Shown piece after piece: positions 3,396-30,170 of a DNA stretch of 30,170 bases; the first letter of the stretch is position 1, and every line of letters begins with the position of its first letter. The stretch is from a virus (taxonomy: Duplodnaviria; Caudoviricetes). Both the position numbers and the translations under genes were made by a program. A model generated the notes under the pieces. The model searched no databases. It had not been told where the DNA came from and worked only from the letters and a program-made list of their open reading frames with translations. The stretch is taken from positions 1 through 30,170 of IMG/VR virus record IMGVR_UViG_3300037751_000524; one strand, written 5' to 3'.

Positions 3396-5656
3396 TGGGC
3401 GATAAACAGGTCAAGCTGATCATCACCGCTTTTGCCAACCAGGCCGAGGCCGAACTCAAGCGATTCGGCGGCGTGGCGACCAAGCTCGGCGGCGTGCTGG
3501 CTGCCGCTTTTTCGGTCCAGGCGATCACCAGTTTTGCCAAGGCCAGCATCGACGCCGCCGACCAGATGTCCAAGATGTCGCAGAGCGCCGGCGTCTCGGT
3601 CGAGCAGCTCTCCTCCCTGGGGCACGCCGCCAATCTCGCCGACGTTCCCCTGGAGAGCTTGGGCAAGTCGCTCGGTAGGTTAGCCGTCGGGATGGCCGAC
3701 ACGCTCAAGGGTACCGGCGAAGCCAAGGACGCCTTCCAGGCGCTCGGCATTTCGGTCACCACCGCAGACGGCAACCTTCGCAGCTCCGACGACGTTCTCA
3801 AGGACATCGCCGAGAGATTCGCCGGGATGGAGGATGGCGCCGGCAAGACCGCCCTCGCCATCAAGATTTTCGGCCGGTCCGGCGCCGCTCTGATTCCCCT
3901 GCTGAATGCCGGGGCGGCGGGCCTGGCCGACATGCAGGCGGAAGCCGCCGCCATGGGTCTGACCCTCAGCACGGAGACGGCACAGGCAGCCGAGCAGTTC
4001 AACGACAATCTGACCCGGATGAAAGGCTCGCTGCAGGGGGTTGCCAATCAGATACTGGCGGAAACCCTGCCGACATTGAACAAGCTCTCCGACTCGATGG
4101 TTGAGAACGCGAAAAGCACTAACGACATCGTACCGGCCGCCGAGGCCGCTAACACGGCGCTGAAAGTGCTGCTCTCGGTCGGCCTGCTGATGAAGACCAC
4201 GTATGACGCCGCCGCCGGCTCGCTCAACACCTTTGCCGTTGCGCTGCTGTCCTTGGTCAAGCTGGACTTGAGCGGGGCGTGGTCCCGCTGGCAGGGCGGC
4301 TGGGAAGGCGTCTTTGACAACGCGAAAGAGAACGTCGAGCGCATCACCGGTCTGTGGGAGAAGGTCAACCAGTCCGGCCAACGCTTCCCTGTGCCGCCGC
4401 CGCCCAAGACCCCGGCCCCGAACCTGCCCAAAGAGGGCAAGGGCGGCAAGGACAAGGCCGCCGAAGCCGCCAAGCGCCTCGCCGAAGAATGGCAGAAAAC
4501 CCGCGCCTCGCTCACCCTCGATACCGCCAAGCTGGGGATGGATGAATTCGAGCAGAAGGTGGTCGACCTCGCCGTCAAGGTACAGGAGCTGCGCGAGAAG
4601 TTCGGTCCTTCCGAAGTTATCGACAACTGGTTCGCCGCCCAACTCAAACAGATCGATGTCGAGCGCATCAAGCAGGCGACCGAAGAGACGAAGAAACTCG
4701 CCGAAGCCCAGCGCGCCGCCCGCGAGGACGCGATCAAGAGCCAGCTCGCCGCGGTCGACCTCGCCGAGCGCGAGCGCAGCATCACCCGCGAGGACGCCGG
4801 GCAGAAGCGCATCGCCCTGCAGCGCGAACTGCTGGAGCTACAGCAGCGCTACCAGAACCAGATCGACAAGCTCAAAGACCCCGCCGGCTGGTACGCCCAG
4901 CAGGACGCCATCAACGGCACCCGCGCCGCCCTGGTCGACCTGAACGACGAGATGCAGCGGCTCACCGGCAGCGAGACCGAAGGCATGGCGCGCGGTTTTG
5001 CCAACTACACCGAGACCGCCCGAACCGAGTTCGAAAACGGCGTGAAGCTCGCCGAAGATACCGCGAGCGCCATGGAGGGGACCTTCGAGACGGTTTTCTT
5101 CGACGGCATGCGCGGCCAGTTTGAAAGCCTCGGCGACTACGTCGACGCCTTTTTGCGCTCGATGCAGCAGTCGGTGGCGCAGGTGCTGGCGCAGATGGCG
5201 ACGAACCAACTGATCAACTTCGGCATTGGCGCCCTGGGCGGGGCCATGGGTGGCGGGGTCGGCGGAGCGACGGCGGGCAGCTCGGTTTACGCGGCCGGCA
5301 CGGCACCGACGGCGGGCAGTGCCTTCCTGGTCAACGCCAAAGGCAACGCCTTTGACCGCGGGCGGGTCACACCCTTTGCCCGCGGCGGCGTCGTGGTCAA
5401 GCCGACCATCTTCCCCATGGCGAACGGCGCGGGGCTGATGGGTGAGGCTGGACCCGAGGGCATCCTGCCGCTGCAGCGCGTTGGGGGAAAACTCGGCGTC
5501 ACCGCCGCCGGCCTGGGCAGCAAGCAGACGGTGATCAACAGCCGGCCGACCTACAACATCGTCACCAACAACCCGAGCGACGTGCGCCGCGCCATCGGCC
5601 AGGAGACGGCCCGGCAGGCGCGGATGCTGAAAGCCGCCGACCGGAGGAACAACTGA
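3395..5656 (+). CDS. Tape measure protein
   Basis: About 750 aa, Ala-rich and helical; IFGRSGAALIPLLN and C-terminal FARGGVV...GLMGEAGPEGILPL motifs. Confidence 0.92.
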   Translation: MGDKQVKLIITAFANQAEAELKRFGGVATKLGGVLAAAFSVQAITSFAKASIDAADQMSKMSQSAGVSVEQLSSLGHAANLADVPLESLGKSLGRLAVGMADTLKGTGEAKDAFQALGISVTTADGNLRSSDDVLKDIAERFAGMEDGAGKTALAIKIFGRSGAALIPLLNAGAAGLADMQAEAAAMGLTLSTETAQAAEQFNDNLTRMKGSLQGVANQILAETLPTLNKLSDSMVENAKSTNDIVPAAEAANTALKVLLSVGLLMKTTYDAAAGSLNTFAVALLSLVKLDLSGAWSRWQGGWEGVFDNAKENVERITGLWEKVNQSGQRFPVPPPPKTPAPNLPKEGKGGKDKAAEAAKRLAEEWQKTRASLTLDTAKLGMDEFEQKVVDLAVKVQELREKFGPSEVIDNWFAAQLKQIDVERIKQATEETKKLAEAQRAAREDAIKSQLAAVDLAERERSITREDAGQKRIALQRELLELQQRYQNQIDKLKDPAGWYAQQDAINGTRAALVDLNDEMQRLTGSETEGMARGFANYTETARTEFENGVKLAEDTASAMEGTFETVFFDGMRGQFESLGDYVDAFLRSMQQSVAQVLAQMATNQLINFGIGALGGAMGGGVGGATAGSSVYAAGTAPTAGSAFLVNAKGNAFDRGRVTPFARGGVVVKPTIFPMANGAGLMGEAGPEGILPLQRVGGKLGVTAAGLGSKQTVINSRPTYNIVTNNPSDVRRAIGQETARQARMLKAADRRNN

Positions 5657-6300
5657 TGGCCTTTCTCGATGTCCGCTTCCCCGTCGATATCAGTTACGGC
5701 AGCGCCGGCGGCCCCGGCTACCAGACGACCGTGGTCACTACGCAGGGCGGCCGCGAGTACCGCAACTCCCAGCGCTCGATGCCCCTTTATGAGTACAACG
5801 CCGCCTGCGGAGTGAAAAGCCGGGCACAGATGGCCGCCCTGTCCAATTTTTTCAACGCCGTCGGCGGCCGGGCGCATTCCTTCCGCTGGAAAGACCACCT
5901 CGATTTCAAGAGCTGCCTGCTGGCCGCCACCCCGGCGGCGCTAGATCAGGCGATCGGCACCGGCGACGGCACCACCGCCGCCTTCCAGCTTAAAAAAACC
6001 TACACCGAAGGGGCGCTCTCCCGCGTGCGGACGATCCTCAAACCGGTCTCCGGCACGGTGCTGGTCGCCGTGGCCGGCGTCGTCAAGACGGTCACCACCC
6101 ACTACACCGTCGACCACGCGACCGGCCTCGTGACGTTTACCGCCGGCAACATCCCGACCGCAGGGCAATCCGTGACGGCGGGGTACGAATTCGACGTGCC
6201 GGCCCGCTTCGATATCGATTCCCTGCGCGACCTCACCTGGGATTCCTACGACATCCTTTCGGCACAGATCCCCGTCCTCGAGGTGCGCGATGCCGCGTAA
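5656..6300 (+). CDS. Distal tail protein, DUF2460 (GTA g12-like)
   Basis: RFPVDISYGSAGGPGYQT, FRWKDHLD, GTGDGTTAAFQLKKTY, AGYEFDVPARFD. Confidence 0.9.
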   Translation: MAFLDVRFPVDISYGSAGGPGYQTTVVTTQGGREYRNSQRSMPLYEYNAACGVKSRAQMAALSNFFNAVGGRAHSFRWKDHLDFKSCLLAATPAALDQAIGTGDGTTAAFQLKKTYTEGALSRVRTILKPVSGTVLVAVAGVVKTVTTHYTVDHATGLVTFTAGNIPTAGQSVTAGYEFDVPARFDIDSLRDLTWDSYDILSAQIPVLEVRDAA

Positions 6301-7771: not shown

Positions 7772-10700
7772 GTTCCAATTCGTGGGGCCCGCTCGCCCTC
7801 GGCATCATCGTCGGGCTGCTGACCTGGTGGACGGGCTACGGCTTCGCCATCGGCTTCGCCATCGGCTCGATGGCCGGCTCCCTGATTTTTGCGCCGAGCA
7901 CCCCGACCATCGACGGGCCGAGCCTGCAAGACCGCCGGGTGCAAAAATCCGAGTACGGGGCACACCTGCCGGTCATCTGGGGCTGGATGCGGACGACGGG
8001 AAACGTCGAATGGGTCAAGGGCAACCAGCTCGACGAGCGCATCCGCAGGATCAAGCAGGGCGGCCAGAAAATCCGCATCCGGGAATATTTCGCCACCTTC
8101 CTGGTCCTGGTGGCCGACTGCACGGACGGGGTGGGCATCGACGGCGTCGCAAAAATCTGGCTCAACCATGAGTTGGTGTACGACTTTTCCGTACAGCCGG
8201 TTTTCGACCCCACCACGGGGACCCTGATCGACAAGCTGGCGGCGGTAAAGATGCCGGGCATCACGTTCCGGATTCTGGACGGGACGCAGAGCGCCGCCGA
8301 CGACCTGATCGTCGCCGACCTCGGCGCCGGCAACGTCCCGGCCTATACCGGGCGGTCGGGGGTGCTGTTTGTCGATTTGCCCCTGGAGAAATACGGCAAC
8401 TCCATCCCCACGGTGGAGATGCTGGTGGTCCGCAAATGCGGCACCGCCTACCCGCCGACGGTGGACCTCGACCCTGGCTCCAGCCTCGATGCGCAGTGGC
8501 ACCGGGGCGACGTGGACCAGGCGACGGGTTATATCTGGTACCTCTCCGACAGTGACTTGCCCGGGGAGGTCACGGTTCTCGACCCGGTGTCCGAGACGGT
8601 GGTGGCGACCATCGGTCTGGGTCTGATCCGGCAACCTTCGTCATCGCAAGACGAGGAGGCGCTCGGCATCGGCATCGACTACATCGAACGGACCGCCGTG
8701 GTGAGCTGCTACCCCGGCTGGGGGGCGGGGCTCGGTGAGCCGCCCATCGTGGGGACCCACCGCATTGACATCGATATGGACACCTATCAAGTTGTCGGCC
8801 GACAGACGGTGGAAATCGGCTATCTCAATTCCATCATCTACAAAACGGGCGGGTTTTTCGCGCAGAGCAAACAGAAATCATACGTCTTCGGGGGGCACAC
8901 GGCCCTTGGTTTCGTCAAGGACGGACCATTGGATGTGGTCACCGGCCCGGCCGGATATCACGCCGCGCAGGAGCTGGCCCGGTGGCAAGACATGTCGGGG
9001 AAAATCTACACCCGCCCGGTCTGGCTGGGACCGGCTGAAGACGGCGAGGTCCCGCCGACGATGGATGAGGGCGATTACTGGTACGTGGTTGGCATGATCA
9101 ACTATCTCCGGGTGTATTCATCGGGTTGGATTCTGGTGGCCCATTTTCGCGCGGTCGAGTGGGTAGATCAAGGGGCCCCGAGGTGGTGCTGGGACTACAA
9201 CCGGAATTATCTCTACACATGGGACCCGTCCAACGTGGGGAGTTTCGTTTACCGGCTCGACCTCAGCGAGGACTTGCCGGGTGCGGTAAAAATCGACCTG
9301 CCCCACGACTGTGGCGGCCTCGGCTATGACGGGGAGTCCGATACGCTCTTTATCGGCAGCTCGAGCGGGCTTTATGTCTACCGGGCTTCCGATTTTACGC
9401 TCATCGAATCCCGCACGGGAATCAACGCGACCGGCGAGCTTTACGCCCCGTCGACGGCGGCCGGGTGGGTGGTTCGAAACTCGGACCTGAACAAGGTTTA
9501 TTATCACCAGCAGTTCGATACCGAGGGGCCGCCGCTCTCCACCGTCGTCGCGGACGTGCTCTCGACCGTCTCCGAGTTCGAGTTGGCCGACTTCGACGTG
9601 ACGGCTCTGACGCAGAGGGTCGGCGGCTACGCCTCCGGTCAGTCGCCCAGGGGCACGATCGACCCGCTGCGGCAGCTCTACCGTTTCGATTTGGTCGAGG
9701 TGGATCATCAGCTCAAGGCGGTCAACCGCGGCGGCGCTCCCGTGGCGATCATCGACTGGGACGACCTCGGCGCCTATGCCGACGGCAAGCCGGCCCCGGC
9801 GGTCACCATCACCCGCCGGCAGGAGGTCGAGCTGGCAAAATCCATGACGCTGACCTACATGGACCCGGCGATGGATTACCAGGACAGCACCCAGCGGGCC
9901 ACGAAGATCCAAACGCAGAGCGACCATCACATCGATGCCAAGCTGCCGGTCGTCCTGTCCGCCGACGAAGCGGCGCGGACGGTCGAAATCCTGCTGCACC
10001 AGGACTGGCTGGCGCGGACGGGCTATGCGATCAGTCTGCCGCCCAAATACGCGGACCTCTCGCCCGGCGATGTCATCAGCATCCCGCAGGACGAAACGGA
10101 GTCGAATTTTTATACCGCGCTCGCCTCGGAGATGACCCTGGCCCCGGACTGGATGGTGTCGCTCAAGGGCGTGCGGGACCAGCCGGACATCTACACCTCG
10201 GCCGCCACCGGCGCGGCGGGCAGCTACACGCCGCCCACGGTGATCATCCCCTATCCCTCGCGGTTGGAGCTGCTGGATATCAACCCATGGACGCCCGTCA
10301 CCGGGTATTTCGTCGCCGTCTCCCCGACGCGTTACCCCTGGCCGGGGGCGGACGTGCTGGAGTCGGCGGCGCTGGCCGGTCCCTACGATGCGATAGCGAC
10401 GACGACCGATGCTGCCGTGATGGGCTCTGCGGTCACGGCCCTCGCGTCGGCGTCCCCCTGGCGGACGGATTACGACAACAGCGTGACGGTCAGGCTGGCC
10501 GATCCGGCGGCGGTGCTCACGTCGGGTCTGGCCCTGATCGGGGACGAGATCATCCATTTTTCAAGCGCCGAGCAAAACGGGCAGGAGTGGACACTCTCCA
10601 CCCTGTTGCGGGGCCGCAAGGGGACCGACACCGGCATGACGCACGCCGCCGGGGAGCGCTTTGTCTTGCTGGATGACAACGTGTTCGCCATCTCACAGCC

Positions 10701-16219: not shown

Positions 16220-17281
16220 CTATTTCTTTTTTGTTTTCGCGGCTTTGGCTGCCGGTTTGCTGTCAGACATTGCAGACAGGGTTTTTCGTTTGCGCAGTTT
16301 GGCGGCTTCGAGCTGCAGCACCTGGTCGCTCATGTGGGTGTAGATCTCGGTGGTGCGGATGTCCGAGTGGCCGAGCATGGTCTGCAGGCTGCGCAGGTTC
16401 ACCCCGCTGCTGACGGCGGCTGTGCCGAACGAGTGTCTTAATAGATGATTTCCCACCTGTTTGTCAAGCCCGGCCTTGCGTCCGGCGCGGGCGATCTCGC
16501 GCTTGATGTTGAGGTAGGGCTTTTCGGTCTGCGGGTTGATGAAGAGATAGTCAGCCGGGGCCTTGCCTTTGCAGGCTTCTTTCAGGGCGGCTTCCAGTTC
16601 GGCGCCGATGATCGGCATCTGCCTGATTTTGTGCATCTTGCCGGTGATGATCAGGGAGCGTCCGGCCAGATCGACCTGCTCGCGGGTAAGCTGCAGGGCT
16701 TCGTTGCGTCTCAGGCCGCACCAGGCCATGAGCTGGCCGATGGTGCGCTTGTCGCCCTGGAGCTGGCCGAGGAGGGCGTCGGCTTCGGGCGCGGTGAGCA
16801 CGGGCAGGCGCTTGGGCTGGCAGTATTTTTTTTCGAAGAGCTGAGGATCGGCGCCGGGCTGGTGGCCGTTGTCCCGGGCCCACGCCAGATAGGCGCGAAA
16901 GTAGGTCAACTCGATGTTGATGGTGCGCCGGCTGACGTTCTGCGCCAGGCGGTGGGCCTTGAACCGCTCGTAGTCGATCTGCCGCAGCAGGGTGAGGTGT
17001 TTGTCCCCCAGGTGGGGCAGCAGGCGTTTGAAGGCGCGGTCGCACTCCTCGACGGTCTTGGCCGCCCGGTGGATGGTGTACCAGTCGAGAAAGCGGCCGA
17101 GCAGGTCGACGACGCGGCAGTCGGTGCGCTCGGCGGGGATGCCGCGGACCTCGGCCTCGAAGGCCTTGGCCTCGGCTTCGGTCCCCTGGTAGGGGATGAC
17201 CCGCTGCGGGGCGCTGCGCCCCCGGCTGATGACGATCTGCCACCAGTCGGGGCCTTTGGTCGGGTGTTTGCGGATGGCCAT
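16220..17281 (-). CDS. int: Phage tyrosine integrase
   Basis: Catalytic motifs GLRRNEA, HLLRHSF, LGHSDIRTTEIYTH; adjacent to tRNA-derived att. Confidence 0.95.
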   Translation of the reverse strand: MAIRKHPTKGPDWWQIVISRGRSAPQRVIPYQGTEAEAKAFEAEVRGIPAERTDCRVVDLLGRFLDWYTIHRAAKTVEECDRAFKRLLPHLGDKHLTLLRQIDYERFKAHRLAQNVSRRTINIELTYFRAYLAWARDNGHQPGADPQLFEKKYCQPKRLPVLTAPEADALLGQLQGDKRTIGQLMAWCGLRRNEALQLTREQVDLAGRSLIITGKMHKIRQMPIIGAELEAALKEACKGKAPADYLFINPQTEKPYLNIKREIARAGRKAGLDKQVGNHLLRHSFGTAAVSSGVNLRSLQTMLGHSDIRTTEIYTHMSDQVLQLEAAKLRKRKTLSAMSDSKPAAKAAKTKKK

Positions 17282-23980: not shown

Positions 23981-25741
23981 ATGATAGAGGGCCAACCAGA
24001 TAATATCATCCCTTTGCGGCAGCAGGTCGAAGAGCGCATCGCCGCAGAGTCTGCGCAGATCGCCAAGGCTGCGGCAGTAAAGGAAAAACAACCGACGGCG
24101 GGCGGTCCCGACGATCCGCGCTTCGTCCGCCAGTGCCTCGAAGCTAACGAGCGCGGCGACGGCGTCCTCGCTGCCGCGCTCCACCGTGGGAAATTCGTCT
24201 ACGTCAAATCCCGCGACGAAAAATCCAAGGCATGGTTCCGCTTCAACGGCGTCCACTGGGAGGTAGACAAGGCCGACGACCACATGATCATCCCCGAAAC
24301 CGTCGCCCTCGTCTACCAGCGCGAAGCCGACCGGCTCAAGCCCGAGATCGCCGAGGCCCGCGACAAGGCCGAAACCGCCTCCAAGGCCGCCGCCAGGCTG
24401 ACCAAGCAGCTCAAGCAGATGATCAAGGACGATGCGCCCGACGACAGCATCGCCGAGACCGAACGGATGCTGCGCGAAGAGGAATTGACCAGCTCCACCA
24501 CCAGCGCCCTGGTCAAGGCCCTAGTCCGCCTGCAGAAGGACTACGCCGACCGCGTCGACCGCCTGCGCGCCCTGCGCGGGGCCAAGAACTGCCTCGAATT
24601 CTCCCACAAGATCGGCCCCGGCGGCCTCTACATCTACGGCGACGAGGTCGACCAGAAGCCCAACCTGCTGCCCTGCCGCAACTGCGTCATCGACCTGGAG
24701 ACCGGAGAGCCCACAGTCGGCCAACCAGAGGATTTCCTCGTCCGGGCACTGCCCATCAATTACGTCGCAGGCATGGCCCGTCCCGCCTGGGAGAAGTTCA
24801 TCAGCGAGATTCACGAGGACGACGCCGAAAAGGTCGCCCTCATCAAGCGGTGGTGGGGTTACTGCCTCACCGGCCACGTCCGCGAGCAGATGTATATCAT
24901 GTTCACCGGCGACGGTGCCAACGGCAAGGGGACCATGCTGGAGCTCGCCCAGGAGATTTTCGGCGAACTCGCCAAACAGATCATGGCCGAGATGCTCGTC
25001 AAAACCCGCAACGTCCGCTCCTCCACCGGTGCCTCACCCGACATCCTCTCCCTCTACGGCCGGCGCTGGGTATTCGTCGACGAGACCAACGACGGCGACC
25101 GGGTCAACGACGCCGAGATCAAGCGGACCACCGGCGGCAACCGCCGCAGCGGCCGCGGCCTCTTCGACAAGTTCGACACCGATTTCAGGCCCACCCACAA
25201 GCTGAGCATCGTCACCAATCACCCACTCAAGGGGATCGCCGAGACCTACTCCCTCAAGCGACGGCTCATCTACCTGCACTATCCGCTGATCTACGATCCC
25301 GACCCCGAGGCCGCAGCCGAGAACGACCCCGGCAACGCCCACCGCTACCGGCGCATCGACAAGATGCTGGACCAGAAGCTGCGGGATGAATTGGAGGGGA
25401 TACTTGCCTGGATGGTCGAAGGGGCGTTGGAATGGTACCAGACCGGCCTGGCCGTCCCGCAGTGCCTCCTCGATGCCGTCGAACAGGTCAAGGTCAGGGA
25501 GGACACCCTCGGCCAGTTCCTCGCCGCCCGGGCGCGCCTCGGCGAGCACTGCGAAATGCCGGCCAAGGATTTTTTGACCGCATACCAGAAATGGTATGCG
25601 GAGGAAGGCCACTCGGAGAAGTGGAAACCCACCCGCAACGTCACCTACGACAAGCTGCGCGCCAAGGGTATCCGCATCCCCGACAACCGCACCACAGGCG
25701 GCACCACGACCATTTTCGGCCTCGATCTCAACCCCTTCTGA
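23981..25741 (+). CDS. P4/D5-family SF3 helicase (primase C-terminal type)
   Basis: D5_N-like region, Walker A GDGANGKGT, Walker B VFVDET, motif C IVTNH. Confidence 0.9.
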   Translation: MIEGQPDNIIPLRQQVEERIAAESAQIAKAAAVKEKQPTAGGPDDPRFVRQCLEANERGDGVLAAALHRGKFVYVKSRDEKSKAWFRFNGVHWEVDKADDHMIIPETVALVYQREADRLKPEIAEARDKAETASKAAARLTKQLKQMIKDDAPDDSIAETERMLREEELTSSTTSALVKALVRLQKDYADRVDRLRALRGAKNCLEFSHKIGPGGLYIYGDEVDQKPNLLPCRNCVIDLETGEPTVGQPEDFLVRALPINYVAGMARPAWEKFISEIHEDDAEKVALIKRWWGYCLTGHVREQMYIMFTGDGANGKGTMLELAQEIFGELAKQIMAEMLVKTRNVRSSTGASPDILSLYGRRWVFVDETNDGDRVNDAEIKRTTGGNRRSGRGLFDKFDTDFRPTHKLSIVTNHPLKGIAETYSLKRRLIYLHYPLIYDPDPEAAAENDPGNAHRYRRIDKMLDQKLRDELEGILAWMVEGALEWYQTGLAVPQCLLDAVEQVKVREDTLGQFLAARARLGEHCEMPAKDFLTAYQKWYAEEGHSEKWKPTRNVTYDKLRAKGIRIPDNRTTGGTTTIFGLDLNPF

Positions 25742-25792
25742 GGGATGTTTTCCAGGGCCTTTTTCGCTGGCAGATTGATACGGGGGTACGGG

Positions 25793-26090
25793 GTTTTATG
25801 TTTTTATGCTTACCATATGTTTTCAGAAAACGCGAAAACATAGACCTGCTCCAGCGGAATTATTGAGTTTTATGTTTTTATGTTTTTGTTTCACGCGCGC
25901 GCACATGTGAGGCAATGAGAAAAAGGTCCGAACGTGAAAGAAGAATATTTTTTTAAATCCTATAGAGAAAAACACGTTTCAAAAGCATAAAAGCATAAAA
26001 AATAGAGTTAAGTGTTTAAAAACAAAAGGTTTTTTCTTTATGTTTTTGTAATGTTTTCGTTATGTTTTTATGTTTTTGCCGGTTTTGAAA
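25793..26090. repeat. AT-rich putative replication origin with iteron-like repeats
   Basis: Multiple TTTATG(T/C)TT(T) units, tandem on + strand and inverted (AAAAGCATAAAAGCATAAAA at 25981); between helicase and primase. Confidence 0.7.
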
Positions 26091-26116
26091 CCCTCTTTTT
26101 TCTGGATGATTGAATC

Positions 26117-27523
26117 ATGACCACCCTCGAACTCGCAGAATCCCGCGTCCCCATGCGGCGGGTCGGCTCCGAATGGCACGGCCCGTGCCCGGACTGCGGC
26201 GCCGGTAAGAGCGGCGAGCGGCACACCGACCGCTTCAGCGTCAAGGCCGACGGCCGCTTTTTCTGCCGCATCTGCACCCCGGAAGGCGGCGATGCGGTCA
26301 AGTTCTTGCGCAAGTTCGAGGGGAAAAGCTGCCCCGAGGCCCACGAGGCCCTCGGCAAGGCCTGCGACTTCACCGGCTGCCCCGTCCGCGAAAAGTGTCG
26401 CATGGGCGACAAAGCCCCAGGCGTTCCCACGCCTCGCAGCCTCGCCCCGCCCCGGGCCGGCCAGTCGCCCGCCTTCGTCCCGGCCGAGGTCATCCCGCCC
26501 GCCGAGCGCTGGCTGAGAGCGGCCGAGAAGCTCGTCGAGACCGCCCACGCCGCCCTATTGGCCCATCCCGAGCAACTCGCCTATCTCGCCGGACGGGGAC
26601 TGCCGCGCGAAGCCGTCGAAAAGTATCACCTCGGCTGGATATCTGATGATCTGTTCCGCCCCCGCTCCACCTGGGGTTTGTCAGAAGAATTCTGGGACGG
26701 AGGCAAGACTAAGAAACTCAAGATCCACCGCGGCGTCCTCATCCCGACTTTCGTCGACGAGCGGCCGCACCGTCTGCGCGTCCGCCGTCCCAAGGAAGAC
26801 CTTAAGGAAGGCGAGCCCGGCTATATCGAGGTCAAGGGGAGCGGAAACGACCGGGTCATCCTCAACCCGGCCGCCCGCGCCGTCGTCGTCATCGAGAGCG
26901 ACCTCGACGCCCTGCTCATCGACTGGCTCGCCGGGGATATCGTTGGCGCCATGCCCACCGTCAGCGCCTCGGCCAAACCGAAGGAGTCGACCTGGCCAAT
27001 CCTGCAGCAGGCCCTCTGCATCCTCGTCGCCTCCGATTATGAGCCCGTATGGGATGAGGCCAGTCAGCGCTGGACCAACGTCGGCGGATCGGCTGCGCAG
27101 TGGTGGCGGCAGCAATTCTCCCGCGCCAAGCGCTGGCCCGTCCCAGCCGGTAAGGACCCCGGGGAGGCCTACCAGCAGGGCGTCGATATCCGAGCCTGGA
27201 TACTCGCCGGGTTGCCTCCCGTGTTTCACCTCCCGGTGGTGCCGAACGAGCCGAAGCCGGCCACTCCACCGCCGGCCGCCGCCGCGCCGCCTGTGCGCCT
27301 CGCCCCCATTGCCGAGCCGGTGCACGGCGTCAGTGCCGGCGGGCGTCCGTTTATCATCGTCAACACCCGCGGCCAGTTTCGGCAGATGACCGAGCAGCAC
27401 CCCGGCGTCGCCGTGGTCGGCCGCAGCGAGCTGGGGCGCATCGATCCCGAGGCGACCGAGGCGGTGCTGATGGTCAAGGGTATTTTTCCCGGGTGCGAAG
27501 TGCTGCGCACCGACATACTGTAG
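26117..27523 (+). CDS. DNA primase (zinc finger + TOPRIM)
   Basis: EWHGPCPDCG...DRF...FCRIC zinc finger; YLAGRGL; VIESDLDA and KDPGE TOPRIM-like motifs. Confidence 0.85.
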   Translation: MTTLELAESRVPMRRVGSEWHGPCPDCGAGKSGERHTDRFSVKADGRFFCRICTPEGGDAVKFLRKFEGKSCPEAHEALGKACDFTGCPVREKCRMGDKAPGVPTPRSLAPPRAGQSPAFVPAEVIPPAERWLRAAEKLVETAHAALLAHPEQLAYLAGRGLPREAVEKYHLGWISDDLFRPRSTWGLSEEFWDGGKTKKLKIHRGVLIPTFVDERPHRLRVRRPKEDLKEGEPGYIEVKGSGNDRVILNPAARAVVVIESDLDALLIDWLAGDIVGAMPTVSASAKPKESTWPILQQALCILVASDYEPVWDEASQRWTNVGGSAAQWWRQQFSRAKRWPVPAGKDPGEAYQQGVDIRAWILAGLPPVFHLPVVPNEPKPATPPPAAAAPPVRLAPIAEPVHGVSAGGRPFIIVNTRGQFRQMTEQHPGVAVVGRSELGRIDPEATEAVLMVKGIFPGCEVLRTDIL

Positions 27524-27532
27524 GAGTCCCCC

Positions 27533-27754
27533 ATGTCCTGGATGACCATGACCTGCGGTAAATGCCGCCACGAAGCCGACATCGACGAATTTTGTCGCAC
27601 GCCCGTCTCCGGCGAGCTGCCGCCAGGGGTCTACCAGTGCCCCGCCTGCGGCGTTGCCGTGCGCCGGCAGACGGCCGGGCCTGGCACGCGGTATGAGTCG
27701 GGGTTGTACGTGCCCGGGCCGGTGGAGATTGTGGTGGTGAATTCGAGATTTTAG
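27533..27754 (+). CDS. Zinc-ribbon protein
   Basis: CGKC...CPACG; RBS AGGAG. Confidence 0.7.
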   Translation: MSWMTMTCGKCRHEADIDEFCRTPVSGELPPGVYQCPACGVAVRRQTAGPGTRYESGLYVPGPVEIVVVNSRF

Positions 27755-27809
27755 CGACAACGAATCAGCTCAAGGGCGCGAAGCGTCCGCTTGCAGCGCC
27801 TTATTATGG
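27755..27809 (-). repeat. attC: attC-like site 1 (R'' core degenerate, AAT)
   Basis: Minus: CCATAAT AAGGC GCTGCAAGCGGACGC TTC GCGCCCTTGAGC TGATTC GTTGTCG. Confidence 0.7.
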
Positions 27810-27824
27810 CGCGGGAGGTAGAGA

Positions 27825-28127
27825 GTGAGAAAATTTAAAAAGGAAGATAGGTATTTAGTGCTGAAGCGGAAGGATATTGCACACTCCTTGTCGGAGCTTG
27901 AGCAACATCTGCTTATGTGTATTTCCGCAAAAATCCACAAAGATCACCCCCGCCACTGTGTTGTAGTGGAACACGACTGGCCGGAGTATGAGCCAACGTG
28001 GAAGGCCATCGAAAATAGGATGAATGGAAAACCCCCTGAGACCGGCCACCGTGGGAGATCGAATGCTGCCGCAGTTGGAGACTGCGTACCGGACGGGGCA
28101 AATGCCCCCACTGCTGCCATGGAATGA
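27825..28127 (+). CDS. Cassette ORF, phage-type hypothetical protein
   Basis: RBS GGGAGG; RYLVLKRKD...CVVVEHDWPEYEPTWKAIE resembles a common small phage protein. Confidence 0.75.
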   Translation: MRKFKKEDRYLVLKRKDIAHSLSELEQHLLMCISAKIHKDHPRHCVVVEHDWPEYEPTWKAIENRMNGKPPETGHRGRSNAAAVGDCVPDGANAPTAAME

Positions 28128-28135
28128 GTAGCGAT

Positions 28136-28194
28136 GGCGAACGGGCCGCGTTTCAGCGGTGAGCGAAGCGATCCGCTGAAAACAGTGGTTAGCC
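28136..28194 (-). repeat. attC: attC-like site 2 (59 bp)
   Basis: Minus: GGCTAAC CACT GTTTTCAGCGG ATCGCTTCGCTCA CCGCTGAAAC GCGGCCC GTTCGCC. Confidence 0.8.
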
Positions 28195-28211
28195 ATTTTA
28201 CGGAGGTCAAA

Positions 28212-28466
28212 TTGAGCGAAGAACGTAAAAAATACAGGTGTAACAAAGCGGATGAGTGCGGAGTTGCGGACGAATGTTTCCACGGAAAACCGCACGAGCC
28301 TATCCGCTGCGGGAACTGTTCAACGTGGTGCGATCAGTCTATTTTCTGCCAACCGGGGACGGCGTGTCTCGGCAGAAAAGGAAGGCTAAATGAAGAAAAC
28401 GGAAAGATGAATAAGCCTGTCCGCGAGCTGTTGCCGATGAAGTGCGTCGAGATAGTTTGTGGCTAA
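28212..28466 (+). CDS. Cassette ORF, Cys-rich protein
   Basis: RBS GGAGG plus TTG (alternative ATG 28134); stop TAA lies inside GGCTAAC. Confidence 0.6.
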   Translation: MSEERKKYRCNKADECGVADECFHGKPHEPIRCGNCSTWCDQSIFCQPGTACLGRKGRLNEENGKMNKPVRELLPMKCVEIVCG

Positions 28467-28524
28467 CGATTGGAGGTAACGAGCATGAGCGGAGCGAATG
28501 ACTCTGTTGACCGTTTGGTTATCG
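28461..28524 (-). repeat. attC: attC-like site 3
   Basis: Minus: CGATAAC CAAAC GGTCAACAGAGTCAT TCGCTCCGCTC ATGCTCGTTACC TCCAATC GTTAGCC. Confidence 0.8.
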
Positions 28525-28685
28525 AGCAGCAGTGTAGAGCATTGGATTGTGTTGCTGATATGCGAATGGCTGCATCTCGCTATCGACAAATGGGAGTCAA
28601 GGCATTAGCAAGGGAATATGAGACGCAGGCAGCAAAAGCAGAAAAGTGGGTGCTGGTTATGTGCCTATCGCCGGAGGAGCTATGA
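28485..28685 (+). CDS. Cassette ORF, hypothetical protein
   Basis: RBS GGAGGT and ATG lie inside attC 3; ATGA coupling to next ORF. Confidence 0.55.
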   Translation: MSGANDSVDRLVIEQQCRALDCVADMRMAASRYRQMGVKALAREYETQAAKAEKWVLVMCLSPEEL

Positions 28686-28873
28686 AATATAACAGTCTAC
28701 TTTCATGCCTATCTTGTGCAGCAAACAACGGGGAGTGCCAATACAAAGTCGAGGGTCGGCCATACCCAGCGCGGGGACACTACAATATCGCGTGTGGCGG
28801 GTGTTTGTATTACGTTCCGAAATGCGAAATATCTGAGGTAAAAGGAGAACGGTACATTACCAATAGCGCATAA
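28682..28873 (+). CDS. Cassette ORF, Cys-rich protein
   Basis: RBS GGAGGAG; CLSC...C...CGGC; stop inside GCATAAC. Confidence 0.6.
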   Translation: MKYNSLLSCLSCAANNGECQYKVEGRPYPARGHYNIACGGCLYYVPKCEISEVKGERYITNSA

Positions 28874-28952
28874 CGCGCCGATAAGCGGCGGAGCAGGAAG
28901 CCCCGACAGGGGCCGGACGGTGAAACCGTCCGCTTGATTGGGCTGGTTCAAA
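28868..28952 (-). repeat. attC: attC-like site 4 (85 bp)
   Basis: Minus: TTTGAAC CAGCC CAATCAAGCGGACGG ... CCGCCGCTTAT CGGCGC GTTATGC. Confidence 0.85.
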
Positions 28953-28989
28953 AGACTTTGCGCTGCCCCGCAGGGGCATAGGAGGACAG

Positions 28990-29181
28990 ATGGCATGCGA
29001 GGAATGTGAGTGTCTCAAAAAAGAGGCCGACCACGAGAACGCCCGAGCCGTTGAGATGGGCAAACAACTTGAAGAGGTTGCACGGGAAGCAAAAGGGTTG
29101 CGCGAAATGATAAAACGCAAACTCCTATGGACGGATGGGGAGATTGATAGTCTGATTGCCGATTCGCGCAAAGTCTTTTGA
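28990..29181 (+). CDS. Cassette ORF, small coiled-coil protein
   Basis: RBS AGGAGG; stop TGA inside TTTGAAC. Confidence 0.7.
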   Translation: MACEECECLKKEADHENARAVEMGKQLEEVAREAKGLREMIKRKLLWTDGEIDSLIADSRKVF

Positions 29182-29234
29182 ACGACTGAGGTCAGCCGCC
29201 CGTCTTTTGGGTCGGCTGGAGCGATTGGTTCACT
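29177..29234 (-). repeat. attC: attC-like site 5
   Basis: Minus: AGTGAAC CAATC GCTCCAGCCGACCC AAAAGAC GGGCGGCTGACC TCAGTC GTTCAAA. Confidence 0.88.
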
Positions 29235-29272
29235 GGCACCGGACCCCGCTCTTGCCCGCAGCTAAAACCTTG

Positions 29273-29300
29273 TTGACAACATAACTAGTTATGATAATAT
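29273..29300 (+). promoter_or_regulatory. Cassette-internal sigma70 promoter with palindromic operator
   Basis: TTGACA-16 nt-TAATAT with TGn; perfect palindrome CATAACTAGTTATG at 29280-29293. Confidence 0.75.
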
Positions 29301-29323
29301 ATACTCAACAAGGAGGTGAAAAA

Positions 29324-29497
29324 ATGCACGAGCTTTATGTTCGATGGACAGGGCGGTCGGAAATGGTGCCCCACAAATGGTATCGCACGCTGCAAGCGGC
29401 GTGGATGGCCTTCCACCGGATGCGACAGGCCCATGATTACGCAGCCTGTGAGATCCGTGACGAAAAAGGGGAAACCGTGGCGAGGTGGTCGAAATGA
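29324..29497 (+). CDS. Cassette ORF, hypothetical protein (57 aa)
   Basis: RBS AAGGAGGTG downstream of the promoter. Confidence 0.7.
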   Translation: MHELYVRWTGRSEMVPHKWYRTLQAAWMAFHRMRQAHDYAACEIRDEKGETVARWSK

Positions 29498-29649
29498 CTA
29501 AAGATGAGCTTCGCAAACTCATTACTGGTCTGGACGATGACAACCTCCGCACCCTGCGGGCGATCATCAACGGCAAACTCGGAAAGCGGCAGATAACCCC
29601 GGAACAACAAGCCGCCATGCAAGAGGGACACAAAAAGCGGGGACCTTAA
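29494..29649 (+). CDS. Cassette ORF, small helical basic protein (51 aa)
   Basis: Manual translation MTKDELRKLITGLDDDNLRTLRAIINGKLGKRQITPEQQAAMQEGHKKRGP; ATGA overlap. Confidence 0.65.
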   Translation: MTKDELRKLITGLDDDNLRTLRAIINGKLGKRQITPEQQAAMQEGHKKRGP

Positions 29650-29661
29650 GCGGGCGGTGCC

Positions 29662-29719
29662 AGTGAACACGGCGCTGAACCGCCGTCTTTTTGGGCGGCT
29701 TCCAGCGACTTGGTTAAAC
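29662..29719 (-). repeat. attC: attC-like site 6
   Basis: Minus: GTTTAAC CAAGTC GCTGGAAGCCGCCC AAAAAGAC GGCGGTTCAGC GCCGT GTTCACT. Confidence 0.82.
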
Positions 29720-29736
29720 CAGCGAAAGGACCTCAC

Positions 29737-30045
29737 ATGGACAGAGCGGATCAGCGACAATTAACCGAATATTGGCATAAAAACACCCACCACCTGAACG
29801 AGCAAATTGATGATGCGTTCAAACTGGCGCAAGACCAGGCGTATGAACTCGGATTAAAGCGGGGCATGGCAGTTACGGCCCGCGACCTGGAAGCTGCAAC
29901 AATTGAAGTTGGACAACTCAAACAGGGCATGTGGCAAATAAAAGACGCTGAAATTGCTAGATGGAAAGACGCTTACGAAAACATGCGTGATTTTGCCGTA
30001 AAAGGCGGTTTGGATATTACCTGCTACGGGCCAGAGTCGGTTTAA
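29737..30045 (+). CDS. Cassette ORF, hypothetical helical protein
   Basis: RBS AAGGA before ATG 29737; stop inside GTTTAAC. Confidence 0.7.
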   Translation: MDRADQRQLTEYWHKNTHHLNEQIDDAFKLAQDQAYELGLKRGMAVTARDLEAATIEVGQLKQGMWQIKDAEIARWKDAYENMRDFAVKGGLDITCYGPESV

Positions 30046-30099
30046 CGGGGCGGGCTGAGGAGCCCCCGAAGGGGAGTCTCTTCCAGCTGCTGGTTCGGG
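30040..30099 (-). repeat. attC: attC-like site 7
   Basis: Minus: CCCGAAC CAGCA GCTGGAAGAGACTCCCC TTCG GGGGCTCCTCAGC CCGCCCC GTTAAAC. Confidence 0.78.
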
Positions 30100-30170
30100 A
30101 CGCGAAGCGGCCCGGAGCAGCAGCGCTCCTCAGCCCGCCCCGTTCGATCCGCGTAGCGGGTCGAACGACC

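Follow-up and report, generated by a model that had tools for sequence, protein, structure and literature searches.

Cassettes with matched ends and genes opposite to their attC-type sites in a temperate sediment phage

The window analysed here is the whole 30,170-nt stretch of the IMG/VR virus record IMGVR_UViG_3300037751_000524 (Duplodnaviria; Caudoviricetes). It derives from a temperate tailed phage, as tail genes, a tyrosine integrase, a repressor and two primase-type genes were recognized among the 45 open reading frames (ORFs) scanned. After the replication genes lies an array of small gene cassettes, interrupted by the contig end, in which seven hairpins resembling the attC sites of integrons are found at 27759-30095. 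All seven sites are on the minus strand, cassette boundaries at AA|C recur in contigs from other samples, the same cassette ends surround unrelated genes, and an integron integrase is encoded beside related arrays.

A covariance model, R1, was trained on 54 sites from other loci, one of which, from the viral locus L092, is nearly identical to window site 4. R1 matches 7/7 window sites, with E values ≤0.008, and nothing else falls below E 0.1. As a control, the three sites of the published TJE1 array were all called, on the strand of its genes, in the ordinary orientation. Site 0 (27759-27805, 23.1 bits), at the far array end, is degenerate and was missed in the preliminary description of this DNA; joints begin at 27759 in three of the sequencing runs described below. 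Then follow site 1 (28140-28190, 22.2 bits), site 2 (28465-28520, 16.9 bits), whose sequence contains GGAGG and the ATG (28485) of the next ORF, site 3 (28872-28948, 23.5 bits), which has a long loop and matches L092 positions 115-201 at 93%, site 4 (29181-29230, 49.7 bits), with textbook spacing and two bulged bases, site 5 (29666-29715, 25.2 bits) and site 6 (30044-30095, 18.1 bits). The seven sites follow the attC plan of AAC and GTT cores, spacers of about 5 nt, paired L boxes and bulged bases on one arm, with spacers off by 1-2 nt in several and one core of site 0 being AAT. Bulged bases determine strand choice in attC sites, and cleavage occurs within the AAC of R' on the bottom strand (PMC5027507, PMC7439510); in the window the bulged bases are on the arm expected for minus-strand attC. 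Stems co-vary, positions being paired in 90% of cases against 62% when shuffled, a figure to be read knowing that the sites had been selected for pairing. No Rfam family reached its gathering score in the 25700-30170 region, and a search of cultured phages left the hairpins unmatched, returning only 6 short matches, all to the cassette 0 ORF.

Beyond site 6 the array continues with units devoid of genes (30093-30166), also absent from the preliminary description. These comprise, by folding, a hairpin at 30093-30118 and a 25-nt cassette body made of a single GTT...AAC hairpin (30142-30166), the next site being cut by the contig end. Between them, a perfect 20 bp reverse copy of the left arm of site 6 (30125-30144) encloses two small hairpins with the site 6 region. 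The stretch 30044-30144 is found with 0 differences in contigs of runs X1 and X2, and contigs of X2 and X3 continue past 30166 into another attC-like sequence. Imperfect inverted repeats can become perfect by template switching, a known mutational mechanism (PMC3820800, PMC8604942), of which the 20 bp copy looks like a product. A palindrome annotated as a terminator ahead of the published TJE1 array (L232, 49197-49217) has the same form as the gene-less GTT...AAC body at 30142-30166.

Cassettes 1 to 5 are delimited by inverted repeats, perfect over 8, 5, 18, 14 and 8 bp, at 28188/28467, 28518/28874 (GTTAT/ATAAC), 28946/29183, 29228/29668 and 29713/30046. Coordinates and lengths reproduce those first described, and the accompanying remark that the two cores of a single site pair less well, site 2 excepted, was confirmed, since in the five sites tabulated they pair for just 3-4 bp, and best in 28465-28520 (4 bp, 6/8). 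The assignment of each left end to its own right end is the best of all 120 permutations (summed match 53; next 48). Among 1096 GTT..AAC pairs spaced 150-500 nt elsewhere in the window, one reaches 8 bp and none 9. The 5 bp match of cassette 2 taken alone is not above chance, as 97 of these 1096 pairs do as well or better. Ends are thus complementary in cassettes 1, 3, 4 and 5, weakly so in cassette 2, and not in cassette 0. Circularised in silico, cassettes 3 and 4 fold with -41.5 and -33.3 kcal/mol, against -26.9 and -15.0 for the integrated sites, and cassette 5 shows a modest gain (-18.0 vs -14.5 kcal/mol). In these three circles the core is paired, which is not the case for the integrated sites; the folding test proposed along with the cassettes hence gave the expected outcome for three of them, cassettes 1 and 2 hardly gaining.

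An integrated attC is a hybrid, and its R'' complements the R' of its own cassette. The survey reported here is consistent with this. R1 was applied to all 80 bacterial loci and, among the first 137 viral loci, to the 62 that showed signs of sites; rule-based sites were added and duplicates removed. In 130 viral cassette bodies from 41 loci, the cassette's own ends pair better than the hybrid site in 109; the match has a median of 8 bp, reaches 12 bp in 17 bodies and 14 bp in 5, and is at most 16 bp. Own ends win also in 29 of 31 bacterial bodies from 10 loci (median 9 bp; one reaches 12). That stems are longer in phages than in bacteria is unsupported (Mann-Whitney p = 0.28; Fisher p = 0.12 for ≥12 bp), in a comparison weakened by undetected sites on both sides and by a bacterial set that is small and not made of independent cases. 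Since own ends win in most viral and bacterial cassettes, end-matching is ordinary integron anatomy, with the 14 and 18 bp stems in the upper tail of its spread, the 18 bp of cassette 3 being the longest seen. The matched ends had been presented as the footprint of circular-cassette insertion: the match is real and above chance, but common to integrons at large. None of 16770 mismatched end pairs reaches 14 bp, so that long stems still need copying or selection.

All cargo ORFs of the window, and all ORFs with ribosome sites, are on the plus strand, and the usual layout of integrons, to which exceptions are known, with genes in the sense of attC and attC downstream, is not observed. As sites and genes are opposite, hairpins come ahead of their genes and the stop codon is the usual place of the crossover, which is on or beside it in cassettes 1, 2, 3 and 5. 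Cassette 0 (27761-28141) has unmatched ends and an ORF at 27825-28127 (phrog_7810). Cassette 1 (28142-28466) encodes a Cys-rich protein (28212-28466) whose stop codon is on the crossover. Two ORFs (28485-28685 and 28682-28873) are found in cassette 2 (28467-28873). The right arm of cassette 3 (28874-29182; ORF 28990-29181) codes for the final residues and stop of a protein that has no homologue except itself. In cassette 4 (29183-29667) the ends form a frame (29228-29259 and 29635-29668) around ORFs 29324-29497 and 29494-29649; in cassette 5 (29668-30045) the frame includes 29713-29730, with the ribosome site, and 30033-30046, which encodes ESV and the stop of a two-domain mosaic ORF (29737-30045). 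The ORFs of cassettes 1-5 gave no credible PHROG, Pfam or NCBIfam match.

The inversion is not peculiar to the window. Of 134 candidate ORFs on both strands of 73 viral segments, 15 match PHROGs, a collection biased towards phage genes, and each of these is opposite to attC. Among their products are DNA methyltransferases, PAPS reductases, radical SAM proteins and a Lar-like protein. By a cruder call, 89 of the 130 viral bodies are inverted, and bacterial bodies are 26 ordinary, 1 inverted and 4 unclear. In locus L203, suspected to be a prophage, the orientation of the cargo is ordinary by its PHROG-matching ORFs.

Contigs from four runs (X1-X4) of four other studies were aligned to 27300-30170. 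Cassette 1 (28140-28466) is found beside other neighbours with 0 differences in X1 and 1 in X2, and cassette 3 (28872-29183) with 0 differences in X3, where it is followed by an attI-like sequence. It had been proposed that fixed neighbours and the lack of breakpoints would speak against mobilisation; cassettes 1 and 3 have other neighbours, so the objection fails, and the independent contigs break at AA|C, as the predicted boundaries demand. Three of four joints have AAC at both ends (27759 to 28140, 27759 to 28872, 28139 to 30044). Loose ends are 58 in all; among the 24 listed, 10 are ≤4 nt from AAC, 3 just past GTT (28191, 28949, 29231), 2 within a hairpin and 9 within a cassette body. Joints and loose ends, an indirect source as they come from rearranged relatives, are consistent with a crossover at AA|C of R'. 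Breaks fall at AAC although the flanking hairpins have little sequence in common.

Some cassettes also break internally. Cassette 0, skipped whole in X1 and X2, has loose ends at 27822 (X3, X4) and 28048 (X1, X3). Cassette 2 has one at 28654 in X2, yet one X3 contig covers both its ORFs. These breaks fit a chimeric origin, which is likely for cassette 0 and, with a break in one run, possible for cassette 2. The left end of cassette 0 (27803-27812) complements the right end preceding site 3 in L092 (118-127) and, if a 1-nt gap is allowed, that of window cassette 2; by sequence, this hints that the two cassettes may carry two halves of one frame.

Loose ends of cassette 4 (29259, 29635, 29637) fall, in three runs, at the inner borders of its frame. 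Both ends, 23 + 23 nt, are identical in L092, where the cargo is a DNA methyltransferase. L092 was found through the site 4 pattern, so that this pair is not a blind test. Cassette 5 does provide such a test. Locus L137, found through an integrase fragment, has the cassette 5 ends, over 18 nt on the left side and 14 nt on the right, around an unrelated cargo. Scanning with the left end alone retrieved 5 contigs, one of which is that of L137; the right end is also present in four, and a foreign right end is found in the fifth. By translated comparison the four cargos are unrelated to that of the window and to one another, and all end in ESV. Ends are identical over 18 and 13-15 nt, though merely 8 nt of them pair, and the hairpins match site 5 at just 29-40 of 50-56 positions. 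The conserved ends supply the ribosome site and the last codons.

Cargo and frame are dissociated also in other ways. The L237 cargo is 47% identical to one that L092 houses in a different frame. The cassette 5 cargo is a mosaic, whose two halves occur with other partners: P0006 joins the N-terminal half of L137 to the C-terminal half and ESV of the window. Only 3 of 9 database homologues having the C-terminal domain end in ESV, and the viral homologue L030, located outside any detected site, has a different tail. As the same ends surround unrelated cargos, and a homologue has another tail, the ends belong to the frame and not to the gene; on these comparisons of sequence, cassette ends appear to be heritable frames rather than gene copies. 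The 14-18 bp stems had been regarded as possible relics of cassette formation. This holds in so far as inherited ends are reused around unrelated genes; they are not copies of the end of the captured gene. The 18 bp stem of cassette 3, whose protein lacks a homologue for comparison, may have been copied in either direction. Scans of metagenomes with the cassette 4 ends gave 7 matches, all attributable to chance by context, and with site 3 the L092 contig only.

The phage tyrosine integrase of the window (16220-17281, minus strand) is ruled out as an integron integrase, scoring 98.1 bits with TIGR02249 (cut-off 265). In L092, instead, site 3, site 4 and both cassette 4 ends are followed by an attI-like junction lacking a hairpin, and then by an ORF that passes TIGR02249 (401 vs 265). 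This ORF is divergent from the attC sites, as in ordinary integrons, and the cargo points towards it. The loose end found after cassette 3 in X3 resembles the L092 junction at 12 of the first 14 letters. A search with the L092 integrase retrieved 38 viral loci, partial and duplicate ones included, and a recurring motif precedes intI, at the hairpin-less junction, in several. Just downstream of intI, terminase or portal genes are found in 11 of the 22 viral loci examined, and a phage replication gene in 6 more (17/22). In a quickly computed tree with 27 viral and 71 bacterial proteins, the bacterial set being drawn from the best 80 of at least 563 confirmed matches, 22 of the viral ones form a group with 2 Nitrospirota proteins, at a support of 90 where the tool sets its bar at 95, and the viral label requires 5 changes against 23.9 when shuffled. 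In L137 (around 1600-1750) the array is followed by an attI-like motif and just a C-terminal intI fragment, apparently an integron losing its integrase. Nine records of cultured phages have an IntI-like protein. In L231 (Virus Rctr41k), the one examined among the nine, the IntI-like gene is at 4680-5678 and no attC match was found in the surrounding 10.6 kb. In the bacterial loci L144, L156, L157, L171 and L178, arrays are downstream of intI and in the same orientation.

We consider it likely that the window hosts an integron-type array in a temperate phage, with attC sites opposite to the genes, the cassettes of which would be moved as circles by an integron integrase, while the ends are inherited frames, the cargo probably being replaced by separate recombination. 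The integrase would excise and insert whole cassettes through a folded single strand; once the cassette is circular its two ends would form the outer stem of its attC, which would explain why they match. The enzyme may be phage-borne, its gene being past the contig end, or may be provided by a co-infecting phage or by the host. New cassettes would arise when mosaic recombination among phages exchanges the cargo, wholly or in part, within ends already present; a ribosome site and, in many cases, the final codons and stop would be provided by these ends. Exchanges across different frames would yield chimeras with mismatched ends and lower mobility, among them cassettes 0 and 2, and matched ends would persist since only these provide a well-folded site in the circle. 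The 14-18 bp stems may be frames that grew longer, either through template-switch copying while folded or because better folding was selected. The cargo may be transcribed from the early operon of the phage, and this would account for the inversion.

Several observations weigh against this interpretation. Neither an integron integrase gene nor attI is present in the assembled 30 kb, and the close relatives L218 and L220 have neither array nor intI ahead of terminase. No circle-closing joint is among those listed in the contigs of the four runs, although contigs drop rare forms and this absence decides little, and no intermediate of a cargo swap was observed directly. Spacing departs from the textbook by 1-2 nt in sites 1, 3, 5 and 6. 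Circles of cassettes 1 and 2 gain little folding energy, the core of the latter being unpaired. By the cruder orientation call, 24 viral bodies are ordinary and 17 unclear. Four further shared-end pairs (e.g. L069/L135), out of 9453, match over lengths short enough for chance, and for this reason have not been counted as frame reuse. The three loose ends just past GTT, and the sharing of about 12 nt beyond the AAC of site 3 with L092, are not explained by a single crossover point.

The main rival explanation is that each cassette is assembled afresh on a shared template or gene-less hairpin: the shared ends would be an extended, lineage-specific recombination site added to every captured gene, for instance by capture in the loop of a gene-less hairpin, with no later swap of cargo. 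The units at 30093-30166 are suggestive in this respect, since gene-less GTT...AAC hairpins occur both at 30142-30166 and in TJE1. Deprived of its cargo, the cassette 4 frame folds into a hairpin with an interruption, one and the same site hairpin is found attached to different bodies precisely at GTT, and homogeneous attC sites have been taken as a sign of cassette creation (PMC4889954). We nevertheless regard this route as rather improbable. In the cassette 5 family ends are identical while hairpins differ and only 8 nt pair, cargos such as P0006 are half-and-half mosaics, one of the five contigs has the left end with a foreign right end, and the end scans found no gene-less copy of frame 4 or 5.

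A less likely possibility is that the integrase exchanges hairpins and bodies at either end of the site, by bottom- and top-strand recombination, the true constant unit being the body from GTT to AAC. The breaks at 28191, 28949 and 29231 would be accounted for, as would the sequence that site 3 shares with L092 past AAC, and some attC sites are reported to recombine the top strand at a low rate (PMC5027507). Breaks at AAC outnumber those at GTT by 10 to 3, however, whole-cassette joints are at AAC, as is the attI-like junction beside intI, and changes of cargo inside the ends are left unexplained. The post-GTT breaks may reflect either the fresh-assembly route or top-strand recombination.

Still less weight can be given to a relic array, with no integrase at work now, whose hairpins serve as expression signals and are shuffled by ordinary homologous recombination of the phage between similar hairpins. 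The window has no intI, site 2 hosts a ribosome site and start codon, and site 0 is degenerate, which speaks in its favour. Against it stand the breaks at AAC between hairpins with little in common, the IntI genes that adjoin such phage arrays and cluster in the tree, and the co-variation of the stems, with the reservation made above. That the repeats are due to chance, to assembly artefacts or to small transposable elements with terminal repeats is already refuted: three of the five matches are just 5-8 bp long and strong hairpins lie at the contig end, but permutation and background tests, the presence of the same sequences, contig-end hairpins included, in independent assemblies, and the lack of transposases among the 45 ORFs scanned all argue to the contrary.

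With integrons (Nivina et al. 2016, PMC5027507; Nivina et al. 2020, PMC7439510) the array has in common hairpins bounded by AAC...GTT, bases bulging from a single arm, a crossover that separates A from C in AAC, complementary cassette ends and, in the relatives, an intI divergent from the attC array. Differently from these, in the phages the cargo is opposite to attC, the hairpin comes before the gene and the crossover is usually on the stop codon; phage accessory genes are carried, and their expression cannot come from the integron promoter beside attI.

Phage clusters of attC sites lacking an integrase (CALINs), and their recognition by IntI1, have been published (Qi et al. 2023, PMC9892861). 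The window, with seven attC-type sites and no intI in its assembled 30 kb, conforms to this type, and the relatives share with it DNA methyltransferase cargos. TJE1, described in the same paper, resembles the window for the 8 bp end matches and the gene-less GTT...AAC palindrome, and differs for the ordinary orientation of its array. The complete integrons reported there are of the Vibrio type, class 1 and Shewanella type. The main text of Qi et al. (PMC9892861) mentions once divergent attC sites in a Polaribacter phage, and does not describe systematic inversion of cargo, phage-clustered IntI or shared ends around different cargos; the supplements to the paper list 17 CALINs, which may include inverted arrays.

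In sedentary chromosomal integrons with homogeneous attC sites (Cury et al. 2016, PMC4889954) one hairpin occurs with different cargos. This is seen also for window sites 3 and 5, since the site 3 hairpin is joined to other bodies in other phages, and the site 5 hairpin (48/52) is found on another body in the IntI-bearing L123. Unlike the near-identical sites of such bacterial chromosomal arrays, the seven sites of the window vary in length (47-77 nt) and sequence, and their context is a phage. Differently from what is described for homogeneous-attC integrons (PMC4889954), flanking ends can surpass the hairpin in conservation, and they contain translation signals as well as terminal codons. 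The phage loci recall the inverted integron-integrase group, e.g. of Treponema (PMC4889954), because intI and cargo have the same direction. In that group, however, intI is the element reversed with respect to attC; upstream sites in L092, and in most viral intI loci, are opposite to intI, and in the phage loci the cargo is turned and intI, divergent from attC, is downstream of the genes.

How genes become integron cassettes is a long-standing open question. On cassette origin PMC3053210 and PMC8352920 offer, in the parts considered here, only a model or an unspecified native mechanism. The group IIC-attC intron model (Leon and Roy 2009, via PMC3053210) also addresses the joining of gene to attC. 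No intron or reverse transcriptase match was found among the 45 window ORFs scanned, and the phage evidence points instead to replacement of cargo, at the DNA level, between existing ends. A full-text literature search, with most subscription journals outside its coverage, returned no paper on systematically inverted phage-integron cargo or on reused cassette ends. End-matching itself is expected; its value lies in the inverted phage setting, the natural rearrangement at the predicted points and the reuse of ends.

End reuse makes the genesis of cassettes testable, and the array provides named test cases: five unrelated cargos between one pair of ends, a family of cargos housed in two frames, cargos of which half has been swapped, and chimeras with mismatched ends. 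Accessory genes of phages are reshuffled naturally, with cassette precision, in independent samples, and site-specific recombination would thereby contribute to phage mosaicism. More tentatively, and with less than even confidence, it may be proposed that phages run integrons of their own, with a phage-adapted integrase lineage and mirror-image cassettes, and make new cassettes by swapping genes or half-genes inside reusable ends, from which the ribosome site, the last codons and the outer stem would come. If this is true, cassettes may be generated at the DNA level without a new attC, and phages would be a possible source of cassettes for bacterial integrons.

Other features of these loci are worth reporting. 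Long-loop attC sites found in L117 (499-1377), L136 and L135 have a ribosome site and start codon in the loop, so that the cargo would be translated through one arm of the site. The cassette 4 cargo (29273-29649) looks like a self-regulated two-gene module: a promoter scan detected a sigma-70-like promoter of its own (29273-29300), with a 14-nt palindrome between the boxes (29280-29293), ahead of two overlapping small ORFs. In the array-less L218, the homologue of the last gene before the array directly precedes terminase. A 10-nt motif is common to the far array end of the window (27750-27761) and to L218 (about 8240-8255), just before terminase, and may be a trace of the original point of insertion. 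Between the two primase-type genes (25788-26086) an AT-rich 19-nt repeat occurs nine times, accompanied by an inverted pair, in a region which is likely the replication origin. Folding of attC sites is favoured on the lagging-strand template (PMC5371416); if forks move rightwards from 25788-26086, the recombining (plus) strand of the attC sites would be this template.

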